This document shows, in pieces, positions 29,685-30,112 of a stretch of 64,000 nt of DNA. Under the pieces are notes generated by a model. That model had not been told where the DNA came from. It worked only from the letters and a program-made list of their open reading frames with translations, and did not search any database. This stretch comes from Eledone cirrhosa. Taxonomy: Eukaryota. The stretch's first letter is position 1; every line of letters starts with the position of its first letter. The stretch covers positions 27,776,001 through 27,840,000 of the forward strand of contig OZ024763.1 in assembly GCA_964016885.1 (NCBI GenBank). Reading direction: 5' to 3'. A program made the position numbers and the translations under genes.

Positions 29685-30064
29685 ATGGAAAGTTATATTT
29701 AAATTGTTGGGTTACAACTAGTAAATATTTATAACTGATATAAAAGCACTCAACAAGTATTTGGAGTATATTTACGATATTAAATAAATGGAAACTATAT
29801 TTATAAAACCATATTTATTTCATTATATATATTTCAGGGATATCATATTAACAATATGTTATGCCTTCCTCAGACAAAATACAATATAGACAGTTTTATA
29901 GATAAATAGATTTGACATACCGTTCAACATCGACTTGTATTTGAAAAAGTTGATTTGGCAGTGAAAAATTGTAAACAGAAAGAAAGAAAGAGAGAAAGAA
30001 GGAAAGAAAGGAAGAAAACGAAGAAAAAGAAGAAAAAGAAGAAATGCATGCAACAAAATACATG
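29685..30064 (-). repeat. 5' pseudo-LTR of the PLE
   Basis: Near-identical to 25849-26232; ends ~50 bp upstream of the ORF ATG. Confidence 0.92.
29816..29881 (-). ncRNA. Type I hammerhead ribozyme in the 5' pLTR
   Basis: Identical to 25980-26045. Confidence 0.85.
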
Positions 30065-30112
30065 AAATAAATATGGTTTTATAAATATAGTTTCCATTTA
30101 TTTAATATCGTA
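30062..30112 (+). repeat. Inverted truncated pLTR copy (51 bp)
   Basis: Exact reverse complement of 29773-29823. Confidence 0.9.

Follow-up and report, generated by a model that had tools for sequence, protein, structure and literature searches.

The window analysed here is a 64-kb stretch of DNA from Eledone cirrhosa, for which the output of a repeat finder is dominated by microsatellites. Within it, the segment 25849-30112 (minus strand) is, by its sequence, a Hydra-clade Penelope-like element (PLE). In the sense direction, the locus begins with a (TA)n/(GA)n array and continues with the inverted arm, a 5' pLTR, an open reading frame (ORF), a 3' untranslated region (UTR), a 3' pLTR and a (TA)n array. 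The features are listed below; signed positions are counted from the predicted cut of a hammerhead motif (HHR), with +1 as the first base downstream of the cut.

25822..25848, no strand: (TA)n target array, read from the sequence, abutting the 3' end of the element
25849..26232, minus strand: 3' pLTR, ending at +139 from the predicted cut, the distal RT start
26233..27423, minus strand: 3' UTR, A/T-rich, from the ORF stop to the pLTR, ~1.2 kb
27424..29637, minus strand: ORF with RT and C-terminal GIY-YIG-type motifs, Hydra clade, one in-frame stop at 28939-28941
29685..30064, minus strand: 5' direct pLTR, spanning +139 to -241 around the predicted cut
29809..29889, minus strand: type I HHR, from its core motifs, its fold and a relative at 43863-43909
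29824..29832, no strand: (TA) run forming stem III, adjoining the predicted cut
30062..30064, no strand: ATG microhomology, 3 nt, common to the end of the direct pLTR and the inverted arm
30062..30112, plus strand: inverted arm, pLTR +1 to +51, 51/51 identical to 29773-29823
30113..30230, no strand: (TA)n and then (GA)n target array on the 5' side, with no readable target-site duplication

The 738-codon frame contains the motifs YRDD and YVG..FKLRYNNH, corresponding to an RT plus, at the C terminus, a GIY-YIG endonuclease (EN). It also contains RWR at codon 38, where the majority of the alignment has RWK, DKT at 119, and the motifs CNCRDRSKC at 597 (CxCx5C), CDLC at 695 (CxxC) and CKH at 722 (CxH). 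A Pfam search of the ORF at an E value of 0.1 matched no family, and the domain names rest on these motifs. Among the matches listed (120 of 247), homologs are 31-42% identical, and the three that are named come from Argonauta hians, which makes a marine invertebrate a likely host. The in-frame stop falls on a nearly invariant Trp column of the homolog alignment, and at 28939 all of the aligned reads (four runs) and contigs differ from the focal copy. Since the stop is private and lies on a Trp column, it is an inactivating change, and selenocysteine recoding of the in-frame UGA was rejected. The Naiad selenoprotein PLEs were also considered and set aside; these have an N-terminal EN and conserved UGA codons at Cys positions, while the EN motifs of the focal ORF are C-terminal. 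The focal copy is thus dead, with one private inactivating stop.

As described in the accessible text of Craig et al. [quoted passage not shown] Earlier descriptions thus cover the pLTRs, the tail and the 5'-truncated partner in inverted orientation (available parts of PMC8557442 and PMC2377424). The focal element differs in the tail of its 3' pLTR (25849..26232), which is ~88 nt rather than 30-40 nt, and in its unit length of 3836 nt, which agrees with the ~3.8 kb of the first-pass annotation and exceeds 3 kb because of the 1.2-kb 3' UTR. The length of <3 kb is given for Hydra-clade PLEs as a tendency, not a rule, in the same part of that paper.

The predicted hammerhead cut and the inversion junction

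The focal motif has the components of a type I hammerhead (CUGANGA, GAAA, a UH triplet and stems I-III), with core strands CUGAGGA at 29873-29867 and GAAA at 29835-29832, a stem I, a long stem II and a minimal palindromic stem III. In the minimum-energy fold, CUGAGGA and GAAAUAUAUAUA are unpaired and the 3' strand of stem I starts at 29823. The predicted cut is therefore 29824/29823, in agreement with the first-pass annotation; its position is a prediction that appears well constrained by the structure. A search of the whole window at Rfam gathering scores found no family, and the HHR call is thus based on motif, fold and relatives. In the related HHR at 43863-43909, stem I is kept through two one-sided changes and the palindromic stem III loop is different. 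PLE hammerheads typically have such a short, palindromic stem III; they are believed to function in dimeric form, and their cleavage in vitro is poor (PMC4209133, in part); for Anolis Poseidon, protein-assisted HHR cleavage in vitro has been described (PMC11167929, in part). The HHR core of the 3' pLTR is also intact (26037-25996), and the two pLTRs are identical at 289/289 positions outside a GA-rich tract.

Across the window, the hammerhead core pattern has 15 matches versus 1.0 expected from shuffles, and at least 7 of the 15 lie in PLE-like fragments adjoining (TA)n arrays. At 4966-5050, a perfect ~85-bp palindrome beside (TA)n lacks the CUGA core; its sequence resembles a hammerhead 3' half that has folded back within stem II.

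Over all of its 51 nt, the inverted arm (plus strand, 30062-30112) is exactly the reverse complement of 29773-29823, and the correspondence ends at 30062. Thus, as first proposed, the inverted copy starts precisely at the predicted cut: all 51 bases match, and the match begins at +1 and goes no further. The proposed 3-nt joint to the 5' pLTR and the (TA)n at the far end of the arm are both present as well. The overlap between direct pLTR and arm is limited to ATG (30062-30064), an exact microhomology that constitutes the terminal three bases of the arm at +1. The direct 5' pLTR, which had been put at ~240 bp past the cut, extends 241 nt beyond it, and read-through of two intact HHRs by the first strand is directly seen. 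The nine bases preceding the junction (30053-30061) repeat the region of the stem I 5' strand (29876-29884), so that RNA at -240 could pair with +1..+8 too; this may be chance.

For one pre-chosen copy, the probability that a junction falls on the cut base by chance is estimated at roughly 1-2%, given the ~225-nt spread of the other junctions. This figure is weak evidence once the choice of the copy from a genome scan is allowed for, and support comes instead from the comparison set.

Junctions and 5' ends in other copies

The first pass covered the window, 78 metagenome loci (most of which are collapsed monomers ending in a pLTR), 17 loci from a genome collection and the HHR loci of assembly G001, which holds much animal-like DNA. 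This assembly, the source of L084-L097, is filed as a bacterial genome and has many small contigs with PLEs and microsatellites; judged by their contents, these contigs are animal-like contamination in a prokaryote collection. In viral contigs, a 20-nt pLTR pattern gave two loci, without an HHR or a repeat, and a protein scan gave none. Inverted arms adjoining an HHR were scored, duplicate orientations were merged by hand, and rows of unrelated repeats were dropped. The 24 inversion junctions, one of which (L190) is not adjacent to its partner, comprise 19 upstream of the cut and 5 downstream. None of the 24 lies at +1..+4, including those of the other four inverted pairs of the window, whose junctions are about 36, 55, 118 and 133 nt upstream of the predicted cuts. 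Overall, inversion junctions span -703 to +65. As a general account of inverted pLTRs, an origin at the cut consequently fails. Two fold-back pairs of the window, from unrelated families (21949-22139 and 46114-46253), have their junction 1-2 nt upstream of the CUGA core. At 47900-48314, unlike the other cases, the 3' end of the inverted arm lies upstream of the HHR, and the UH position of this HHR looks mutated.

Reads of the focal family give a similar picture. Among the joints listed, 0/6 strand-switch joints fall at 29820-29823, with the joint of the focal copy itself inside the masked interval 29970-30064. From +33 to -29, the raw reads lose only about 5-12% of their depth, and most focal-family copies therefore run through the cut. 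Cut-site junctions are clearly not the rule. A go-back joint from 29827 to 29773 with 4 filler letters occurs in 6 reads (X14) and 21 reads (X15); it links the +51 end to a unit whose start lies within stem III, as would result from insertion into the TA run of the element itself or from a 5' end close to the cut.

The first-pass scan is biased, being blind to arms whose partner lacks an HHR core; DNA searches of G001 turned up copies of this kind. For this reason, a family-wise scan of 5' ends was used instead, in which every HHR reference was aligned to all loci (431, then 492) and the 5' ends were recorded. The final scan used 492 loci, 132 references and 213 copy rows, mostly from the DNA of one other animal; 157/213 rows hold a whole HHR, for which the search had enriched the set. 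Left out were 51 viral-contig loci with the HHR pattern and L001-L002. Within the range -30 to +30, no copy can serve as its own reference. Rows were dropped if they represented the focal copy, contig ends, one chimeric reference, microsatellite or cross-family matches, or internal rearrangements (L469/L530, L526, L538 and the +12 row of L531). The L494 row was dropped for a tandem repeat in its reference, and the +3 arm of L199 was merged with its +1 arm. The +1 position was set beforehand; the range and the cleaning of the list were the analyst's choices.

The 25 ends kept are, upstream, -27, -25, -21, -18, -14, -12, -10, -5, -5 and -1, and, downstream, +1 (four), +2, +4, +6, +9, +9, +11, +18, +21, +23, +26 and +28. 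Thus 4/25, from four families, lie at exactly +1 versus 0.42 expected (P = 7.4e-4), a result that depends on a uniform null and a hand-cleaned list and in which all four events come from the one assembly, G001. For the interval -1..+4 the count is 7/25 versus 2.1 expected (P = 0.0035), and for four ends at any one base, with +1 not set in advance, P is 0.04. The background in this comparison set is about 0.36 ends per base, and about 90% of its +1 ends are in excess of it, with a lower bound near 67%. From the loci added last came four ends (-1, +9, +21, +28), none at +1, and one well-sampled family has ends at -5, -12, -14 and -27, again with none at +1.

The four +1 events, all in G001, are the following.

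L197: arm +1..+51, with a 1-nt overlap with an opposite distal-site arm, +62..+111; both arms end in (TA)n
L371: arm +1..+33, joined to an opposite distal-site arm, +16..+103
L199: fold-back with arms at +1 and +3
L188: solo copy, +1..+62

The families of L197 and L371 lie behind Hydra-type ORFs and share the anatomy of the focal copy; in both, as in the focal copy, the arm that stops at +1 is the one from the proximal site. When the +1 cases and L487 (-1) are added, 3/28 inversion events have an arm at exactly +1, in a set that under-samples such copies.

Priming and template of the inverted arm

Measured from the predicted cut, the long strand ends at +139 and the inverted arm at +51. The top (TA)n loose end among those listed in both raw-read runs (5290 and 6004 reads, from reduced-representation data in which neither read counts nor contig depth sums are copy numbers) maps before 29767 and is also present in 30 contigs in X1. 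It is read as a (TA)n join at 29773 plus six bases extended through one mismatch, and part of that mismatch signal is subfamily variation. In a related family (72-74% identical), a pLTR-only insertion at 46381-46785 uses both of the homologous 3' ends, and each of its arms holds a whole HHR. In vitro, the tail of Anolis Poseidon is bounded by two internal RT start sites, and both target strands are cut and extended (PMC11167929, in part). Given the recurrence of the +51 end and these start sites, the second, opposite-strand priming event proposed in the first-pass annotation is supported and fits known biochemistry.

In the proposed mechanism, EN would nick the (TA)n target on both of its strands. 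One RT, starting at the distal site, would copy 4.2 kb through two ribozyme sites without stopping, from a template that could be uncleaved, tandem or re-ligated circular RNA; a circular RNA has been proposed by Cervera and de la Pena in the available part of their work. A second RT, starting at the proximal site on the other strand, would usually stop or switch at a variable point. Sometimes, it would instead have a self-cleaved template and would stop at the end of that template, at +1. The two cDNA 3' ends would then anneal through ATG/CAT, prime each other's second strand and be filled in. Cleaved RNA would be a minority template, with most inverted arms reading through the ribozyme. Run-off from self-cleaved RNA is, from the distribution of 5' ends, likely a real minority route, and the 51-nt arm at +1 is probably its product, made by a second RT that was primed on the opposite strand and ended where its self-cleaved template did, at the 5' end. 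The assignment is held at this level because the G001 excess comes from another host and from small numbers, the focal family has a target-like (TA) run at its cut, and a stall could give the same end. The original claim that RT copied a self-cleaved RNA to its 5' end thus survives as a minority route supported by 5' ends in other families, and finds no counterpart in the six focal-family joints.

Chance offers another account, in which both cDNAs come from uncleaved RNA and an arbitrary 3-nt microhomology happened to lie at the cut of a copy picked from a large scan. Junctions are widely spread, 3-nt overlaps are cheap (ATG occurs seven times in the sense strand from -241 to +51), the comparison set has its background of about 0.36 ends per base, and the listed focal-family joints outside the masked interval include none at the cut. 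Set against this is the portion of +1 ends in the comparison set that exceeds background, and for the focal arm chance is considered unlikely, if still to be reckoned with. A hotspot that requires no RNA cleavage could also place ends here, either by stalling of RT at the three-way junction of an uncut ribozyme or by an EN nick in the element's own (TA) run. The run at 29824-29832 is the sole one of at least three units within the focal pLTR and matches the target of the element, the go-back joint at 29827 is found in both raw-read runs, and other ends are loosely clustered in and just before the HHR. However, in the four +1 cases elsewhere the cut lacks a (TA) run and the stem I and stem III sequences are different, and a stall would not be expected at one base in four different folds; a hotspot is accordingly regarded as improbable.

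Least probable, and by a good way doubtful, is a fold-back in which the 3' end of the first cDNA (..ATG) annealed to its own CAT at 29821-29823, was copied to +51 and was resolved by EN. Such an origin would suit an arm that is identical to its own pLTR at 51/51 positions, even at 29785, a position at which the majority of the family's raw reads differ. Near-symmetric fold-backs account for several of the inverted pairs, and Craig et al. 2021 ascribe the tail to EN-mediated resolution (PMC8557442, available text). However, many reads also have +51 as a free end joined to (TA)n, short solo copies stop at sites of this kind, both ends of the tail are RT start sites in vitro (PMC11167929, in part), and a fold-back is not needed for solo copies starting at +1 or +2 (L188, L435).

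[quoted passage not shown] 2013, PMC3774820, in part). In R2 this is the main route and involves a single cDNA; in the focal element the ribozyme is different, the route is a minority one and it is the short inverted arm that is marked. None of the first-pass junctions lies at +1..+4, and the R2-like feature found here is the excess of 5' ends at the cut base in other families. Poseidon PAc of Anolis carolinensis resembles the focal element in its two internal RT starts, the cutting and extension of both strands, its A/T-rich target and an HHR upstream of the RT start sites (Frangieh et al. 2024, PMC11167929, in part). In that system, according to the same portion of the paper, HHR cleavage is dispensable in vitro: HHR mutants insert normally, unprocessed RNA is dominant, and no RNA-seq reads end at the cut, whereas here a minority of genomic 5' ends lie on the predicted cut.

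Another related process is the twin priming of L1. In twin priming, each of the two target strands primes a cDNA, the pair covering adjoining stretches of a single RNA, and their meeting at a microhomology results in a 5' inversion. The focal cDNAs, in contrast, overlap, as both hold +1..+51; consequently, two RNAs or two passes are needed. A broader reading, that PLEs routinely load two RNAs, uncleaved or circular for the long strand and ribozyme-cut for the short one, and that a +1 class across clades records cleavage in the germ line, is speculative and held to be rather less than an even prospect. If it were true, ribozyme activity could be scored family by family from assemblies alone.

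The role of the HHR in endonuclease-bearing PLEs has been called unclear (PMC8557442), and the accessible text of that paper gives no junction positions relative to the HHR cut. A full-text literature search, covering main texts and few subscription papers, did not find PLE junctions described at the HHR cut, and none is reported in the available parts of PMC7229834 or of a 2026 retrozyme preprint; whether the observation is new may also depend on Fig. S2 of PMC11167929 and on Repbase entries. Genomic copies whose 5' ends fall exactly on +1 would count as in vivo evidence both for the existence of cut RNA and for its reverse transcription, and those found here are a hint, at the level of genomic sequence, that the hammerhead cuts in living cells. 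Such ends also give a cheap, countable test, a 5'-end histogram for each family from any good assembly. The surprise is limited, as earlier work had established both start sites along with the tail and the inverted arm, the route is a minority one, the events are few and the cut is predicted.

Two further observations concern the region around the RT start sites. Reads cover 29773-29871 at roughly 50- to 200-fold the depth of the ORF; thus, very short pLTR fragments dominate the focal family. Between the two RT start sites, many Hydra pLTRs share a motif, RCTC-N8-12-TYGAGYRCT (29740-29760 in the focal copy; also L021, L028, L060 and G001), which is possibly a protein-binding hairpin.
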